Below are positions 52,361 to 61,279 of a stretch of 64,000 bases of DNA, piece by piece; within the stretch, counting starts at the first letter, position 1, and the number at the start of each line of letters is the position of its first letter. Source of the stretch: an uncultured Trueperaceae bacterium (lineage in GTDB: Bacteria > Deinococcota > Deinococci > Deinococcales > Trueperaceae); the NCBI GenBank assembly GCA_963799485.1, contig CAWCXJ010000013.1, positions 352,001 to 416,000 of the forward strand, in the 5' to 3' direction. Position numbers and translations under genes: made by a program. The notes under the pieces were generated by a model, which was not told where the DNA came from, ran no database searches, and was given only the letters and a program-made list of their open reading frames with translations.

Positions 52361-53225
52361 TATAGCAATTACCGGAGTAATTGAGCTAAAGATAAAGTGA
52401 TGAAGGCTTATTGATTTGGATTTACGCGAACGTATCGTTGAGGCAAAAGCTGGCGGTCTGTCTATCAGACAGACCGCCAAACGCTTTAAGGTAAGTTGTG
52501 CAAGTGTCAAACGTTTTGTCAGGCTGGAGCGGGAAGCAGGAAGCTTAAAAGCAAAGCGGCGACCTGGTAAACAACCGCTCCTGAACGATGAAGCACTGAG
52601 TGTTTTAGAGAAGCAGGTCCGGGAACGAAACGATCTAAGCTTGGCTGAGCATTGCCGGGAACTTGAACAGCGCAGCGGTTTACGAGTAAGCGTCACAACG
52701 CTGCAGCGCAGCTTGGGGCGGCTAAGCATCACGAGAAAAAAAGACGAAACACCCGCGTGAGCGCGATGGACAAGCAAGGCGAACTAGGCTCACGAGGGCC
52801 GGCCGAAGGTTGCCCGTTCTAGATGGCTGGTCAGAGGTGATTCAGTCCATACCCAGACCTTTGGCACTTACCGCGAGCATATCCTGTACCCTACGCTGTT
52901 TTCAGGGCAGATCGTAATCCTCGGTCCGAGCGTAGCGAGAACACAACGTAACAACTACAGCATCCATACCGACAGCAGGATTCGTGAACTCATCGAAGCA
53001 AAAGGCTGCACACTGCTCTTTTTGCCAACTTAACCCACCTGACCTGACGCCTATCGAAAACGCCTTTTCTAAGATCAAGGCGCTGCTTAGGCGAGCGAAA
53101 GCTACAACTCGAGAGGTGCTATCCCAGGCTGTTAGAGCTGTCTGTGATGCTATTTCTCTTCAAGACATTCTCAGTTGGTTCGGTAACTGTGGCTACTTGG
53201 GTCATTATCTGTGAAAACTGCTATA
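52361..53225 (+). mobile_element. IS630-family element, internally deleted pseudogene
   Basis: Ends TATAGCA(A/G)TT with TA duplication; MKAY* then DLRERIV HTH; A7 run before a deletion; C-terminal PDLTPIENAFSKIK. Confidence 0.88.
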
Positions 53226-53508
53226 GCAGCTCGCACCAGCTCTGGTGAGCTTTCAGTAGCCGCAGTAACTGGCTACGTTCCGGCAAACCTGCAAAAAGGC
53301 CGTCATAATCTCGTTTGAGCCAACGGTAAAAAGTTCTAAAATGAGTCCCTTTAAGCGCAAACAAGATACCGATAGTCACCAGTTCACCCGGGTACAGCTT
53401 GGCTTGCGGGTGCTTGGACAAAGGTGGTAGTTGCTCATCAACTTGATAGAAGATATGGATGATAATGTCCTCGGTAGCCATGAACAGCCTCCATATGAGC
53501 TTGAACAC
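53221..53508 (-). mobile_element. IS982-like transposase N-terminal fragment, cut at the IS630 end
   Basis: IFYQVD...HPQAKLYPGELVTIGILFALKG...FYRWL...LPERS. Confidence 0.65.
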
Positions 53509-54000
53509 CTAATCTTGCCCCGTTTTCCCGGAAAGGTAGTTAAGCAGCTTGCATGAAGTGTACCCTTTCAAAATCGTGGGGGGATGAAAAGCCCAGAGCG
53601 GAGTGCCTGCGCTTGGCGTTGTAAAAGCCCTCGAGGTAGCTGAAGATGCCGGTTCTAGCCTGCTGACGGGTTTCATAATTTGCGGCAACCTCATCAGTGT
53701 TAAGCGTAGCGAGAACGACTCGACAACTGCATTCTCATAACAACTGCCCTTATCCGACATGCTTTGCTGGAAGCCGTTCACGTTTAATTCGGCTCTAAAG
53801 GCGCGGCTGGCGTACTGAGTGCCCTGATCCGAATGGTGTGAAAGTGCAGTGGTAGCAGTCCGCTGCCGGGTTGCCAGCGACAGCGCTGAAAGCGTTAGGT
53901 CATCTGTCAACCTCTCTGAGAACGCCCAGCCTACAACCCTGCGGCTAAATAGGTCGAGCGTCACGGCGAGGTAAAGCCAGCCCTCAGCTGTCGAGATATA
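53509..54000 (-). mobile_element. IS3-family remnant (integrase core and right IR)
   Basis: EGWLYLAVTLDLFSRRVVGW, HSDQGTQY and NAVVES; frameshifted FYNAKRRHSALG; IRR-like TCCGGGAAAACGGGGCAAGAT. Confidence 0.88.
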
Positions 54001-54062
54001 GAGGGTGTTTGAAAAATAACCCCCACTCGTGTTTGAGTGGGGGTTGATGATCAAACACCCTC
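54001..54062. mobile_element. 62-bp MITE with IS5-like terminal repeats
   Basis: Perfect TIR GAGGGTGTTTGA...TCAAACACCCTC, TA on both flanks, internal hairpin AACCCCCACTC-GTGTTT-GAGTGGGGGTT. Confidence 0.75.
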
Positions 54063-54289
54063 TAAGTGGATTGCACGCCGCCATCTGCGCCACCTTGCAA
54101 CCTCCGCTACCAATGATCCCCCACACGCACGCGTCAAACCCTAGCCCGAGACGGCGATCTTGCAGAAGTGTTTTATAAGGGCGCGTAAACTCTGCTAGGG
54201 CTGACGCTGAAACCGCTCTTTTCTGTTCCATCTGAGACTATACAGACTTTTGTCCGGGTTTCAGTTTTTTCGCTTGACTTTTAACACAG
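54063..54289 (-). mobile_element. Left end and N-terminus of another transposase (IS4-like)
   Basis: End CTGTGTTAAAAGTCAAG, TATAGT-5-ATG, then PYKTLLQDRRL...GIIGSG; family assignment tentative. Confidence 0.5.
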
Positions 54290-54300
54290 CATCTCTAGTG

Positions 54301-56346
54301 TTACTGCACCGCGACCGGCGCCGCTTCCGGCGCGAACAGTATCCAGCGCTTAAACGGCGTCAGATCGACCTCGATTCCGGTCGTGCTCACGAACGCAAAG
54401 CCGCCTTTGGGCGTCCAGCTGCCGGGGATTACTTTGCCGCGCAGGTAAAGCGTCGCTTCACCGCCGCTGTAGGGCAGGTAAAGACGCCCCTCGGGGTCGT
54501 CCGGGTAGGGAAACGCAACAACGCGGGCGACGACTACGGCGTCGGCGGTGACGGCTTCTTGCACCGCGTCGGTGGCTTCCGCGCCGCTCCTGACCCAGCG
54601 GTATCGGTCTAAGTCGGGCAGGTAGCGAAAGCCGCTCGAGTAGTCCGCCGAATAGTTTACGGTGACAGCAGCAGCGTTCGGCGCGTCTCCGGGCGGGGTG
54701 TAGAGCGTGCCGTTGACGCTGTTTTGCAGGCGACCTACCGCGTCCCGCAGGGCGGTTCCGGTAGAAAAGGTGCTGTGCGGCGCGGCGCGGTCGGGGGCTT
54801 GGGCGAACAGGTCACCTTGTTGCAAGGCGTCTAAAGTCGGCAGACCTTGCGAAGCGATACGCCCGACCGTACTTGGTGCGCCGCCGACGTGAACGAGGGT
54901 GCCGTTCATGGCTAGGGCGGCCTCGAGAAAATAGTCGCGGGCACTCCGAATGGGCCCGACCTGGGCGGGGTCGCCTTTGGTGTAGACGCTCATAAGCCGC
55001 GTTAGACCACCCTCGACGGGCATTTCAAAGACGCTCGAGGCCTCGACCAATCCTTGCTGCGGATAGGCGGCGTCGGCGTTGTCGAGAAGCACCGCGAGGG
55101 GTTTCTCGAGGGTGACTTCAAAGTTCTGGACGTTGGCGACGCCTGCGGGTGCCGTTCCTGCTCCGTCCGACGCTGCGCCCTGTCCGTCAGCAGCCGCCGC
55201 TGTACCTGTTTGGGCGTTGCGGGGACCGTCACCTGCGTCGGCAGCACCTGCGGCGGCTGCCGGGTCGGTTTCCGGCGTCGCGGCAGGGGCAGTCACGACC
55301 GCTTCCGCGTTCGGGGTAACGACCGAAACCGCGTCACCGACGGTAACACCGGGGGTTACGGCGAGCGGCTGCGCTCGACTCACCGAGACCTGGGCTTGCG
55401 GCTCGGGTACGTTCTCACCGGGCGCGACCTCACCGCGGACCGAGGGTTGCGGTACGGCGCGAGCCTGCGCCACGACCGCGCCCGCTTGCGGCTGCGGCAC
55501 GGGCCTCGAGGCAATTTGGGCCGTCGCCGCAGGTTGCGGCAAAGCCTGCGGCGCGCTGACCGCCGCACTCGCCTGCGGTGCAGGTACGTCTCTAGCAGCA
55601 AACTCGACCGCCACATCGGGCTCGGGAATCGCGTTCTCCGCGGTGACTTCGGCCTGGGCTTGCGGCAAGGTGATCGCTTGCAAGGCCAGTTCAGCGGTGA
55701 CCTCGGGGGTCGGCAGCGGTTCGCTCAGGGACACTTCAGCCTGCGGCGTTACGGCAATGCGGCGCTCAGAAGTCACGGCGATCTCGGGGTTGGGCGTGGG
55801 CAGCTCGAGCGCCGGTTGCAGGGGTTGCGGCGCGACCTCGACAGCTTCGATTTCCGGCAGCGTCGTAGCCGGGGGTTCTACGGGGAGCGGCGGCGTCGGC
55901 GCAACTTCCGGGACGCGCGCGGGCGGCGCTTGTTCGGACGGGGGCACGGCTTCGGCAAGTTCTGCCGGGTTTACGGGATTCACAGGTACGGGTACAGGGT
56001 CGGTAGTAGCGTCGGTAGCAACTTCAGGAACGGCTGCGCTTTGAGTCGCAGCGTCTTGGGCAGCGTTACCGGCAACCTGCGAGGTATCCGCTGGCGGGGC
56101 CGCTTCGCCGGTGGCGGCGGCAGGGGTCGCGGGTGCGCCGTTCTGGGGCGGGGTCAGCTCGAGCACCAGCAGTTGCGGCGTCTCCTGGGGCGGCAAGACG
56201 TAAAGCCACACCGCGCCGAGCAGAACGATCGCGTGAATAAGCAGCGACAAAAGAAGCGCACGCCGCCGCTCCCGGTCTCCCCAAAAACCGGCTGAACCGG
56301 AGCGCTCCGAGAGGCCTGAACGTCCGGCTGGTTGACGACCCGCCAA
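54301..56346 (-). CDS. TonB/TolA-like membrane-anchored Pro/Ala-rich protein with C-terminal DUF3048 (YerB-like) domain
   Basis: Single TM with SLLIH; about 350-aa P/A/V/Q/E linker; KPLAVLLDN...PQQGL...VFEMPVEGGLTRL...VGPIRSARDYF...HVGG. Confidence 0.85.
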   Translation of the reverse strand: MAGRQPAGRSGLSERSGSAGFWGDRERRRALLLSLLIHAIVLLGAVWLYVLPPQETPQLLVLELTPPQNGAPATPAAATGEAAPPADTSQVAGNAAQDAATQSAAVPEVATDATTDPVPVPVNPVNPAELAEAVPPSEQAPPARVPEVAPTPPLPVEPPATTLPEIEAVEVAPQPLQPALELPTPNPEIAVTSERRIAVTPQAEVSLSEPLPTPEVTAELALQAITLPQAQAEVTAENAIPEPDVAVEFAARDVPAPQASAAVSAPQALPQPAATAQIASRPVPQPQAGAVVAQARAVPQPSVRGEVAPGENVPEPQAQVSVSRAQPLAVTPGVTVGDAVSVVTPNAEAVVTAPAATPETDPAAAAGAADAGDGPRNAQTGTAAAADGQGAASDGAGTAPAGVANVQNFEVTLEKPLAVLLDNADAAYPQQGLVEASSVFEMPVEGGLTRLMSVYTKGDPAQVGPIRSARDYFLEAALAMNGTLVHVGGAPSTVGRIASQGLPTLDALQQGDLFAQAPDRAAPHSTFSTGTALRDAVGRLQNSVNGTLYTPPGDAPNAAAVTVNYSADYSSGFRYLPDLDRYRWVRSGAEATDAVQEAVTADAVVVARVVAFPYPDDPEGRLYLPYSGGEATLYLRGKVIPGSWTPKGGFAFVSTTGIEVDLTPFKRWILFAPEAAPVAVQ

Positions 56347-56757
56347 CTAGTTGCCTCCGGTAGCAATCGCCACGCGCTCGGCACCTGCTTGCTTAATCAA
56401 GTCCATCACCCGCACGGGCAGGCCGTATTCGATACTCTGGTCGGCGCGCATCACCACGGTCGTCGCGCCGCTCGTCTCTAAAATAGGTCTGAGCGACGTG
56501 ATGAGCGTCGCTTCGGTGACCTCGGCGCCAGCCAAATAGATACGCCCTTCGCCGGTGATCGTGACGGTCGGCAAGTCCGAGGTTTGCGCCTGGGTTTGCG
56601 CTTGCGGCAGGTCTACGGGCAGGCCCGACTCGAGCGAGATAAAGGTCGTCGAAACCATAAAAAAAATCACCAGCGTAAAGACCACATCGACCATCGGCGT
56701 GAGGTCTAGCAGCGGCCCCGTTTGGGCAACGGCGCGGTTACGGCGGGCGCGGCTCAT
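56347..56757 (-). CDS. exbD: ExbD/TolR-family protein
   Basis: DLTPMVDVVFTLVIFFMV (conserved TM Asp), VDLP, RAD and VMDLIKQAG. Confidence 0.92.
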   Translation of the reverse strand: MSRARRNRAVAQTGPLLDLTPMVDVVFTLVIFFMVSTTFISLESGLPVDLPQAQTQAQTSDLPTVTITGEGRIYLAGAEVTEATLITSLRPILETSGATTVVMRADQSIEYGLPVRVMDLIKQAGAERVAIATGGN

Positions 56758-56794
56758 ACTGTACTCAACCCTGACTCGTTCGTATCTAACTTGT

Positions 56795-57478
56795 TCATAC
56801 GGTGGGCTCGAAGGTATCGGCTTGCGTGGCTTCAGTCCGGCCCGTGCTGCTCCGCGCGGTCTCACGGCCTTTTAACGACACCGCCTGCGCCACGTTCCCC
56901 ATCAGCTCTTCACGGCGACGCTCGAGTTCGACCAAAATCCCCTCGACCCGGCTCGCCAGGTAGCTATGCCCTAAAACGGTCGGGATGGCGACGAAAAGTC
57001 CCGCCGCCGTCGTAATCAGCGCCTGACCGATACCGCCTGCGAGCGCTGCCGGGTCGCCCGTTCCCTGCGACGACACCACTGCAAACGCCTGAATCATCCC
57101 GGTCACGGTTCCCAACAGGCCCAAGAGCGTCGCCACCTGTGCGATAGTCGCCAGCGGACGCAAGCCGCGCGTAAGGTGCTGTTCTTCGCTCAAATACGCT
57201 TCTTGAAAGGCCGCCTCGACTGCCGGACGCCCGTAAGGAATCCGGGCGAGCGCCGCTTTGAGCACGCGCGCGACCGGGCCGCCGTGGTGATCGCAAGCGA
57301 TCATCGCCATCTCGAGGTTTCGGCCCAGCACCGCCGCGTTCACCCGCGCCATCAACCGGTCGGCGTCGGGGCGCTCACGCGAGAGCTTAAAAAGCCGGGT
57401 CAGAAATAAATAAAGGGCGTAAAGTGAGAGCAGTAAAATAACGAGCAGCACCGGGCCGCCACTCAAAAGCAAATCCAT
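56795..57478 (-). CDS. exbB: MotA/TolQ/ExbB proton-channel protein
   Basis: LLGLLGTVTGMI and LAGGIGQALITTAAGLFVAIP. Confidence 0.92.
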   Translation of the reverse strand: MDLLLSGGPVLLVILLLSLYALYLFLTRLFKLSRERPDADRLMARVNAAVLGRNLEMAMIACDHHGGPVARVLKAALARIPYGRPAVEAAFQEAYLSEEQHLTRGLRPLATIAQVATLLGLLGTVTGMIQAFAVVSSQGTGDPAALAGGIGQALITTAAGLFVAIPTVLGHSYLASRVEGILVELERRREELMGNVAQAVSLKGRETARSSTGRTEATQADTFEPTV

Positions 57479-57610
57479 AGTTCACCATCCTAAAAGCCGC
57501 TCGCCTTAAACGCGTGAGAGGGTGCGCGCACAGTTAACCCCCACCCTGAAGGTTCAGTTTACGCTTTTGTACGCGCCGCTACAGCAAATCTGACCTACAA
57601 GCCACGCGGG

Positions 57611-60358
<2,748 letters not shown>

Positions 60359-60505
60359 GGTGAACCATCATGTGCACGTAACAACCGGAGAAACCCGTGC
60401 GTTTTGGAGATTGGATAACATAAGACGATTGTAAAGCTTTTGGGCAGTGAGACGACGAGGCGTCTGTATTTTTCGGAAACTCTGAAAACAACGTCAGGTC
60501 GTCCT

Positions 60506-61279
60506 CTATTCCCCTTCGGGCGCACGCCACTGAATCCGCTCGATAGCCACGGCGCGGCCTCCGGAAAGTGTCAAGTTTACGGCGCACACCGTACCGGGCG
60601 CGTCGGCAGGTTTATAACGTTTAGGGAGTCCGGTGGTAAAGCGGTAGAGCACTTCGTCGAAACGCATCCCGATAGCCGAGTCCTGCACACCAGTCATTCC
60701 GACGTCCGTAAGGTAGGCCGTGCCGCGCTTTATCAGCTCGTCGGCGGTCTGCACGTGCGTGTGCGTGCCGATGACGGCGGCGACCCGGCCCGCCAAAAAC
60801 TCGCCCAGCGCCTTTTTCTCCGAGGTCGCTTCGGCGTGAAAATCGACAATTACGGTGGTGTTCGGCGGCGCGGTCTCCAAAAATTCGTCCAGCGCCCGAA
60901 ACGGGTCGTCTAGAGCGGGTAGGAAAATCCGGCCCATCGCCTGTACGACCGTGACGCGCTCGCCGGTGCGGGCGCTCAGGGTAGTGTATCCGAGCCCCGG
61001 CGCACCCGGCGGGTAGTTGAGCGGGCGGATGAGGCGCGGGGTTTCCTCCAACAGCTCAAACGCCTCGCGCCCGTCCCAGGTGTGGTTGCCGAGCGTCACT
61101 ACGTCCGCCCCGGCGTCTAGGAGGCCGTTGAAGTGTTTTCGGGTAATTCCGAAACCGCCCGCGATGTTTTCGCCGTTGACGATGATAAAATCAAAATCGT
61201 CCCGAACTTCCGCCAGGTAACGCTGCGTGACGGTGTAGCCGGGGGTGCTGAAGACGTCGCCGATAAAAAGAACGTGCAC
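60506..61279 (-). CDS. ymdB: YmdB/TIGR00282-type metallophosphoesterase
   Basis: FIGDV, NGEN, GNH, DFHAEATSEK, GTHTHVQTAD and DVGMTG. Confidence 0.92.
   Translation of the reverse strand: MHVLFIGDVFSTPGYTVTQRYLAEVRDDFDFIIVNGENIAGGFGITRKHFNGLLDAGADVVTLGNHTWDGREAFELLEETPRLIRPLNYPPGAPGLGYTTLSARTGERVTVVQAMGRIFLPALDDPFRALDEFLETAPPNTTVIVDFHAEATSEKKALGEFLAGRVAAVIGTHTHVQTADELIKRGTAYLTDVGMTGVQDSAIGMRFDEVLYRFTTGLPKRYKPADAPGTVCAVNLTLSGGRAVAIERIQWRAPEGE

Follow-up and report, generated by a model that had tools for sequence, protein, structure and literature searches.

What does an ExbB-ExbD motor drive in a bacterium whose genome yields no match to a TonB_C domain, a TonB-dependent receptor or the TolB and Pal proteins? 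The question is raised by a stretch of 64,000 nucleotides (nt) from an uncultured Trueperaceae bacterium (assembly GCA_963799485.1, contig CAWCXJ010000013.1, positions 352,001 to 416,000), referred to here as the window, in which an exbB-like and an exbD-like gene are followed by a third gene, here called T3. The T3 protein opens with a transmembrane helix and a long linker in the manner of TonB or TolA, and ends in a tip of the DUF3048/YerB type. This exbB-exbD-T3 feature is real and strongly conserved. The gene order, the domains, the fold, the conservation of motifs and a genome without other Ton/Tol parts are direct observations; by analogy with TonB and TolA, we consider it probable that the three genes encode a proton-powered force transducer of that class with a new output domain.

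Organization of the exbB-exbD-T3 locus

The genes and the parts of the T3 protein (lengths in amino acids, aa) are as follows.

56795..57478, minus strand: exbB/tolQ-like stator gene, 227 aa (PF01618 MotA_ExbB, E 8.6e-30)
56347..56757, minus strand: exbD/tolR-like stator gene, 136 aa from the likely ATG at 56757 (PF02472, E 4e-27)
56344..56358, minus strand: exbD-T3 junction, with GGAGG at 56354-56358, the exbD stop TAG at 56347-56349 and the T3 TTG at 56344-56346
54301..56346, minus strand: T3 gene, 681 aa, TTG start, encoding a TonB/TolA-like stalk with a DUF3048/YerB tip
56194..56259, minus strand: T3 transmembrane helix, approximately residues 30-51, with the hydropathy maximum at residue 30 and an RERRR cluster before it
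56146..56175, minus strand: conserved motif after the transmembrane helix, a candidate "motor box", residues 58-67 (family consensus YLVIDxGTP)
55132..56145, minus strand: Ala/Pro/Val-rich linker, recognized by composition, approximately residues 68-405 (about 340 residues), without a Pfam match
54733..55110, minus strand: DUF3048 N-terminal domain, residues 413-538 (PF11258, E 3.7e-33, 115.2 bits)
54340..54666, minus strand: DUF3048_C domain, residues 561-669 (PF17479, E 5.1e-08, 33.7 bits)

The three genes lie head to tail in a tight block on the minus strand. The TTG start of T3 directly abuts the exbD TAG, with GGAGG read from the sequence 7 nt upstream, and this start is supported by homologues that open with the same MAG/MAS residues. 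The exbD open reading frame (ORF) as called spans 56347-56865, reaching a GTG at 56865. A scan of positions 54000-57800 for promoters and terminators gave counts no higher than the level of shuffled sequence. Among sequencing runs there was no RNA match; seven DNA runs contained all or part of the stretch, none with as much as half of its words.

T3 opens with a basic segment, residues 1-29, whose last residues are RERRR. A single 19-residue window of the protein is strongly hydrophobic; it starts at residue 30 and contains SLLIH (residues 34-38, S34-x3-H38; 56233-56247). Ala makes up 23.5% of residues 53-405, Pro 17.0% and Val 11.6%. A sequence-only reading of this DNA had described exbB, exbD and a 681-aa gene in tandem, a TTG start abutting the exbD stop, and a third protein with one N-terminal transmembrane helix carrying SLLIH and a long Pro/Ala linker. 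The ORFs, the Pfam matches and the junction agree with the first part of that description, and hydropathy and composition with the second.

The tip of T3

Both tip domains exceed the Pfam gathering cut-off, which is 25 bits for PF11258 as well as for PF17479. Residues 409-675 match Bacillus subtilis YerB (PDB 2psb) in a phmmer search (E 2.8e-21), and an AlphaFold2 model of residues 400-681 (pLDDT 96.1, pTM 0.93) closely resembles the same structure (Foldseek E 8.9e-24, TM score 0.83; VIA-align Z 32.4, root-mean-square deviation 2.4 over 266 residues). Judged by this model, the tip has the YerB fold rather than that of TonB_C. There is no match to TonB_C (PF03544) in T3 at E <= 0.1 and no Pfam match to vWA, the protein matches no NCBIfam family, and neither sequence (Pfam) nor fold comparison reveals a likeness of the tip to TolA_C or TonB_C. 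The view that the C-terminus is of the DUF3048 type rather than TonB_C or TolA, first taken from motifs in the translated sequence, is thus upheld by both the profile search and the modelled fold.

The tip also appears to be a regular member of its family. In an alignment of 43 DUF3048 sequences that includes distant members, and whose invariant columns were defined on the window sequence, T3 holds all 10 invariant and 21 near-invariant columns; the residues kept include Q, E, three R, S, Y, H and W. Literature searches on DUF3048 and YerB returned no functional study.

Conservation among Trueperaceae

Of 61 genomes from the window's family (36 genera), all 61 encode DUF3048 and 60 encode MotA_ExbB. 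In 55 genomes the two share a contig and a strand at a distance of 1.5-3.2 kb, and the other 6 are explained by breaks at contig ends. These counts include one unpublished genome (G033, among the 6 with breaks), without which they become 60/60, 59/60 and 55/60.

A set of public loci, the 80 best from a search with one of our alignments (A2), gives the same picture. Its entries are titled Truepera, Trueperaceae, Deinococcales, Deinococci or Deinococcaceae, or carry no taxon name, and other phyla are not represented; the closest loci are titled Truepera or Trueperaceae, the best match being 90% identical. exbB, exbD and T3 lie on one strand in 72 of the 80, with ppc upstream in 53 of those. Of the remaining 8, 2 comprise exbD and T3 at the end of a contig, and in 6 T3 itself is cut. 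Every locus of the 80 that has upstream DNA also has exbD, and the gap between exbD and T3 is mostly -11 to +13 nt in the 74 loci holding both genes. Because the three-gene order recurs in every related locus with upstream DNA, it is far beyond chance. No further conserved gene on the same strand accompanies the three across the Trueperaceae loci, and no conserved transporter gene is seen near them among related loci. Three metagenome-assembled genomes (MAGs; L085, L107, L110) titled "Deinococcaceae bacterium" carry the DUF3048 stalk of Trueperaceae type, and their labels may be loose.

The N-terminus is conserved in a specific pattern. The motif [KRQ]RRAxxx(S/T)xxxH is found in 71 of the 80 loci (70 with Ser, 1 with Thr), and one more reads RRRS...S-x3-H; the other loci have no readable N-terminal motif, 2 owing to problems of ORF calling and 6 to truncation. 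S-x3-H is therefore present in 71 of 72 Trueperaceae loci with a readable N-terminus, the remaining one having T-x3-H. In an N-terminal alignment of 59 sequences (A3), R7, R8, A9 and H17 never vary and S13 reaches at least 90% conservation, even though the segments share only 27-73% identity with that of the window. Positions V40, G44 and P46 of the same alignment, in the motif that follows the helix, are also at least 90% conserved.

The stator in its genomic setting

The assembly (3.66 Mb in 15 contigs, 99.99% complete, 4.63% contamination) encodes one MotA_ExbB protein, one ExbD, one DUF3048 protein and one N-terminus of the T3 type. The Asp at position 24 in the transmembrane segment of ExbD is invariant among 46 aligned homologues. 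Searches of the whole genome gave no match to TonB_C, to the barrel (PF00593) or Plug (PF07715) of TonB-dependent receptors, or to TolB_N and OmpA-family (Pal) domains. Controls were matched in each case; in the TonB_C and receptor searches they were E. coli, Caulobacter and Bacteroides, which in the receptor searches amounted to 3 of 14 genomes. A search for TonB_2 (PF13103) was uninformative, as the controls gave no match either. The sequence-only reading had seen no TonB-dependent receptor, tolB or pal beside the locus, and the genome-wide searches extend this from the neighbourhood to the assembly.

In a genome without TonB_C or a second T3-type N-terminus, T3 is the only visible client of the only stator. 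An outer membrane is nevertheless expected, because Omp85/BamA and three SLH proteins are encoded.

Stalk tips across the Deinococcota

The phylum was sampled with 151 genomes falling into four families (f1 to f4). f1 is the window's family; f2 and f3 look like Deinococcaceae and Thermaceae, judged by which named controls match. The domain counts are as follows.

Family f1: DUF3048 in 12/12 genomes, ExbD in 12/12
Family f4: DUF3048 in 8/8 genomes, ExbD in 8/8
Family f2: DUF3048 in 0/82 genomes, ExbD in 79/82
Family f3: DUF3048 in 0/48 genomes, ExbD in 10/48

All 8 genomes of f4 have the exbB-exbD-T3 arrangement. Their stalks keep RRA and the motif after the helix, and are recovered by the f1 N-terminal profile (E 2.4e-7).

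In f2 and f3, exbB and exbD are followed by a protein of 408-839 aa with a basic N-terminus and T/A-x3-H in its transmembrane helix; it also has a short hydrophobic motif and an extended Pro/Ala linker. This protein has neither a Pfam match nor BLASTP similarity to T3, and its tip, a C-terminal domain of about 120 residues bracketed by two Cys, is different from DUF3048. Examples of these stalk genes, each located after exbD, are listed here.

L024, 2036-4411, plus strand: f2/f3-type stalk gene
L025, 3794-5641, minus strand: f2/f3-type stalk gene
L028, 2035-3525, plus strand: f2/f3-type stalk gene
L030, 3833-5059, minus strand: f2/f3-type stalk gene

The Cys-bracketed tip is found in 79/82 genomes of f2 and 10/48 of f3, the same numbers as for ExbD, and in 0/13 of f1 (including the window's genome) and 0/8 of f4, making 89 of the 151. 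ExbD and a stalk tip thus occur together family by family, the tip being DUF3048 in f1 and f4 and the Cys-bracketed domain in f2 and f3. When modelled (pLDDT 84.6), the latter is similar to Treponema pallidum Tp0624 over residues 179-319 of that protein (Z 10.7, next Z 3.0), with a Foldseek E of only 0.06. A conserved secreted protein of about 231 aa comes after the f2/f3-type stalk gene.

The sequence-only reading had named the conservation of S-x3-H and of the gene order in homologues as a test, and had suggested a survey of the exbB-exbD-DUF3048 order across Deinococcota. The motif held in Trueperaceae but not in f4, where the His is missing; the gene order held in f1 and f4 but not in f2 and f3, where a different tip is found.

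DUF3048 outside the phylum

Among 1.84 billion cluster representatives, a search with a DUF3048 profile identified 7,406 proteins of this family at E <= 0.001. Among the best 150 of these, a strict automatic rule found S/T-x3-H in an N-terminal transmembrane helix in 28, S-x3-N/Q in 3 and an f4-like pattern in 2. By eye, S-x3-H is also seen in six more of the 150 (P0057, P0130, P0132, P0139, P0146 and P0148). Such a pattern was not found in 117 of the 150; 85 of those are 420 aa or shorter, many opening with a lipobox or a plain transmembrane helix. Further N-termini joined to DUF3048 include PEGA and coiled-coil regions and, in one Acidimicrobiia-labelled protein from a separate homologue search, an SLH domain.

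Stalks of the TonB-like type also occur among Atribacterota. DUF3048 proteins whose clusters include members with this label have S-x3-N in an N-terminal transmembrane helix, and two unlabelled representatives that group there have S-x3-H. Proteins labelled Atrimonas thermophila, Thermatribacter velox and Atribacterota MAGs are members of two of the TonB-like clusters. A quick maximum-likelihood tree of 77 tips, weak in its deep branches, places those of f1, f4 and the PEGA variants in one starred clade (99) and the four Atribacterota-type tips in another (92). Constraining the Deinococcota and Atribacterota tips to group together gave a log-likelihood 35.5 above that of the free quick search (p-AU 0.894). 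A single origin of the fusion of stalk and tip is therefore not rejected, but neither is it shown, the grouping having been chosen after the tree was seen.

A group of secreted proteins of 486-544 aa (P0014, P0018, P0019, P0021, P0023-P0026 and P0030) has DUF3048 tips that are 63-78% identical to that of the window. A PEGA domain was matched in all four that were scanned (P0014, P0019, P0024 and P0030), and the others have a similar N-terminus by eye. In the tree, three of four PEGA-type tips fall in a set of 5 rows with the window's tip (98, starred) and the fourth in the surrounding set of 7 rows (95, starred). The amino-acid usage of these proteins looks like that of genomes lower in guanine plus cytosine (GC). 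Together they suggest recent domain shuffling or transfer. A metagenome scan with P0019 returned one ordinary Truepera-type locus only.

Another set (P0180, P0193, P0200, P0208, P0226, P0229 and P0251, of 811-941 aa, and P0171, P0197, P0219 and P0223) begins with a signal or transmembrane segment followed by long, helical-looking N-terminal regions. These architectures are unlike both the lipoprotein type and the TonB-like type.

Neighbouring genes

Upstream of exbB and in the same orientation lies ppc (57611-60358; PEPcase, E 5.6e-282). The gap between ppc and exbB is 132 nt, and a gene for a YmdB-like phosphoesterase precedes ppc, the stretch spanning 57611-61279. In related loci (L034-L113), convergent genes on the opposite strand are found about 0-2.1 kb downstream of T3, and encode a metallophosphoesterase in 49 of 80 loci and a protein with four LysM domains and Peptidase_M23 in 48 of 80. 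At another locus (L154), with a T3 tip 83% identical to that of the window, the neighbours are a polysaccharide pyruvyl transferase and a DUF5693 membrane protein.

These usual downstream neighbours are not seen 3' of T3 in the window. Directly past the T3 stop there is instead a patch of low GC content (about 51%, compared with 61-69% nearby) at 52416-54231 that contains transposase fragments. Its ORFs are as follows.

52416-52760, plus strand: IS630-type helix-turn-helix ORF
52984-53214, plus strand: ORF of 76 aa
53221-53508, minus strand: ORF of 95 aa
53509-54231, minus strand: rve integrase-core ORF

Truncation of T3 by this cluster of insertion sequences was considered and ruled out: the C-terminus aligns to the ends of homologues, so T3 is intact.

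Proposed mechanism and alternative explanations

In the mechanism proposed here, exbB, exbD and T3 would form one operon encoding a stator, made of ExbB and of ExbD with its transmembrane Asp, and a dedicated force transducer. T3 would lie in the cytoplasmic membrane with its N-terminus inside and its C-terminus outside, docked on an ExbB pentamer via the RRAxLLS-x3-H helix, and the motif after the helix may engage the periplasmic domain of ExbD. The Ala/Pro-rich linker of about 340 residues would carry the two-domain YerB/DUF3048 tip through the periplasm, and proton flow through the stator would lead to pulling or repositioning of the distal tip. Binding to ExbB-ExbD and transmission of force are drawn from the precedent of TonB and TolA. 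A complex prediction with two ExbD periplasmic domains and T3 residues 49-106 scored 0.04 against a mark of 0.32; it was run without controls and is evidence neither way. As a DUF3048 tip replaces TonB_C, the output would not be the opening of a TonB-dependent receptor.

The tip might instead act on a cell-wall polymer or on the layer that tethers the wall, that is, on peptidoglycan or on a pyruvylated secondary polymer holding SLH proteins. We put this forward tentatively. One reason is that in presumably single-membraned lineages this domain, with its invariant polar residues retained, occurs as a short-tethered protein of the wall zone; another is its fusion to SLH and PEGA modules. The presence of wall-related genes nearby on the other strand (LysM-M23 and, in the genus Truepera, pyruvyl transferase and DUF5693) argues in the same direction.

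Several observations weigh against a motor-driven transducer. T3 has only the S-x3-H half of the SHLS pattern: E. coli TonB has Leu at H+7 and Ser at H+11, and the corresponding residues of T3 are Ala and Tyr. The T3 N-terminal profile gave only noise against Pfam, and in the PDB it matched only TolA transmembrane helices (9k49_H, 9ddm_F) at a non-significant E of 8.5, in an alignment that spans TolA residues 12-32 and takes in its Ser and His. The same profile does not recover the f2/f3 stalks at E <= 1, so that the idea of a common anchor with exchanged tips depends on architecture and on motifs recognized by eye. All 8 f4 stalks have T, E or S in place of the His, and the Ser is mostly Ala. 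Neither stator protein reaches an NCBIfam equivalog cut-off (ExbB: TolQ 81 bits for a cut-off of 221, ExbB 61.3 for 206.2; ExbD: TolR 70.5 bits for 127.3, ExbD 55.8 for 216) and the stator is thus not to be filed as Ton or Tol. DUF3048 itself needs no motor, since tips are also carried on lipoprotein, plain transmembrane, PEGA and SLH N-termini. Finally, no solved structure other than 2psb convincingly resembles the tip (next Foldseek E 0.086, next VIA Z 3.0), and its fold consequently gives no functional clue.

Some of these points would suit a passive anchor, in which T3 is a DUF3048 wall protein fixed to the membrane, lies behind exbD for reasons of co-regulation or co-localization, and has in its S-x3-H helix a generic transmembrane segment without motor contact. 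The tip works on other anchors elsewhere, the f4 stalks have no His, and the similarity to the TolA helix is non-significant. On the other hand, a passive T3 would leave the stator of the window's genome without any client (no TonB_C, no other T3-type N-terminus), and would have to account for the fact that every locus with upstream DNA has exbD, mostly within -11 to +13 nt. The invariance of R-R-A and H in 59 otherwise divergent N-terminal segments, a second conserved motif after the helix, and the presence of ExbD wherever a stalk is found, family by family, also speak for contact with the motor, and we regard a passive anchor as improbable. An ordinary role in nutrient uptake, with T3 as a functional TonB whose DUF3048 tip opens an unrecognized type of outer-membrane transporter, seems very improbable indeed. 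The layout of ExbB, ExbD and stalk is that of Ton systems and a divergent barrel could escape the Pfam receptor models; nevertheless, neither barrel nor Plug is matched in a genome search in which the E. coli, Caulobacter and Bacteroides controls were, the tip does not have the TonB_C fold, and there is no conserved transporter gene nearby.

The main rival is a Tol-like role, in which the tip would engage an outer-membrane or S-layer-tether protein, such as an SLH/beta-barrel tether, and would stabilize or constrict the outer membrane at division, substituting for Tol-Pal. In its favour, the genome encodes Omp85 and three SLH proteins but gave no TolB_N or OmpA/Pal match, and a linker of about 340 residues is very long. 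The best NCBIfam rows for ExbB and ExbD are TolQ and TolR, and sister families swap the tip for another small domain while the motor stays. However, DUF3048 is widespread in lipoprotein or membrane-anchored copies on a short tether in organisms that are likely to have no outer membrane, no conserved partner gene is found on the same strand, and no link to TolA_C or TonB_C was found in sequence or fold. We consider this role unlikely, if less so than a passive anchor.

Returning to a force transducer with a DUF3048 tip, a broader but rather doubtful scheme may be sketched. Deinococcota without Tol-Pal and TonB-dependent receptors might run a single modular, energized stalk whose tip has been exchanged in evolution. 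Trueperaceae and a second family would have YerB/DUF3048 at this position, and Deinococcus- and Thermus-like families a small, Cys-bracketed domain resembling part of Tp0624. DUF3048 would then be a module for wall polymers, unpowered on a lipid tether in single-membraned bacteria and driven by the proton-motive force in double-membraned Deinococcota and Atribacterota. If true, this would provide the first function-bearing context for a DUF3048 family of thousands, and a third class of output for Ton/Tol-type motors.

Genetics and biochemistry on the system are feasible in cultured relatives. Truepera radiovictrix is in culture, and the sources given for the Atribacterota proteins include Atrimonas thermophila and Thermatribacter velox. 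The locus offers a possible role for a lone ExbB-ExbD motor in an outer-membrane lineage without a TonB domain, TonB-dependent receptors or Tol-Pal, and a first testable functional context for the orphan DUF3048/YerB family (7,406 cluster representatives at E <= 0.001).

Comparison with known systems

With E. coli TonB, T3 shares a single transmembrane helix with the N-terminus inside and S-x3-H, a Pro-rich periplasmic spacer and, by prediction, the partnership with ExbB and ExbD. It differs in the linker of about 340 residues, in the missing L and second S of SHLS, and in the absence of TonB-dependent receptor matches from the window's genome. Without TonB_C, it fails the defining test for a TonB. 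With E. coli TolA it shares the position after two motor genes (tolA follows tolQ and tolR) and a non-significant match of the N-terminal profile (E 8.5), but not a tip of the TolA_C type; the window's genome has no tolB or pal match, and the system fails the tests for Tol-Pal.

YerB of B. subtilis is a stand-alone lipoprotein of a single-membraned bacterium. Its structure, a structural-genomics entry (2psb), has the same two-domain fold as the T3 tip; the difference is that in T3 this domain forms the tip of a TonB-like stalk. The Atribacterota-labelled DUF3048 proteins have the same stalk plan as T3 and are shorter (484-496 aa, compared with 681).

The nearest published counterpart is the group of vWA-tipped "motor-driven force transducers" (Williams-Jones et al. 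2025, Mol Biol Evol msaf138, PMC12204202). The concepts of an SHLS helix, a motor box and a tolerated disordered domain II appear in parts of that paper and of a second one (PMC10666116). The vWA transducers share with T3 a transmembrane helix with a conserved His, a motor box after the helix (a candidate in T3), a disordered or Pro-rich linker, a C-terminal globular domain unrelated to TonB_C or TolA_C, and a gene located beside tolQ/tolR-like motor genes. They differ in the tip, which is vWA rather than YerB/DUF3048, in their origin (Proteobacteria, PVC and Bacteroidetes, compared with Deinococcota and also Atribacterota for the T3 plan), and in the conserved TPR gene on the same strand, which Trueperaceae do not have. 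The sequence-only reading had suggested a different output for a Ton/Tol-type motor. The tip is indeed not TonB_C, but since vWA-tipped transducers were published in 2025 (PMC12204202), such an output now has a precedent. The main text of that paper contains none of the terms DUF3048, YerB and Deinococc, and one of its supplementary files contains neither these nor Truepera. Literature searches on ExbB/ExbD in Deinococcus, TonB in Truepera, DUF3048 and YerB found no description of the exbBD-stalk-DUF3048 architecture.

The exbB-exbD-T3 system thus matches the plan of the vWA transducers, with a different tip and in different phyla, and adds to the recent idea that output domains of other kinds can be mounted on TonB/TolA-type stalks. 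What is new here is the DUF3048-tipped stalk in Trueperaceae and a second family of Deinococcota, together with the pattern of tip exchange across the phylum. With its ExbB-ExbD motor, this stalk appears to be a variant, so far undescribed, of the machinery bringing energy to the outer cell envelope.

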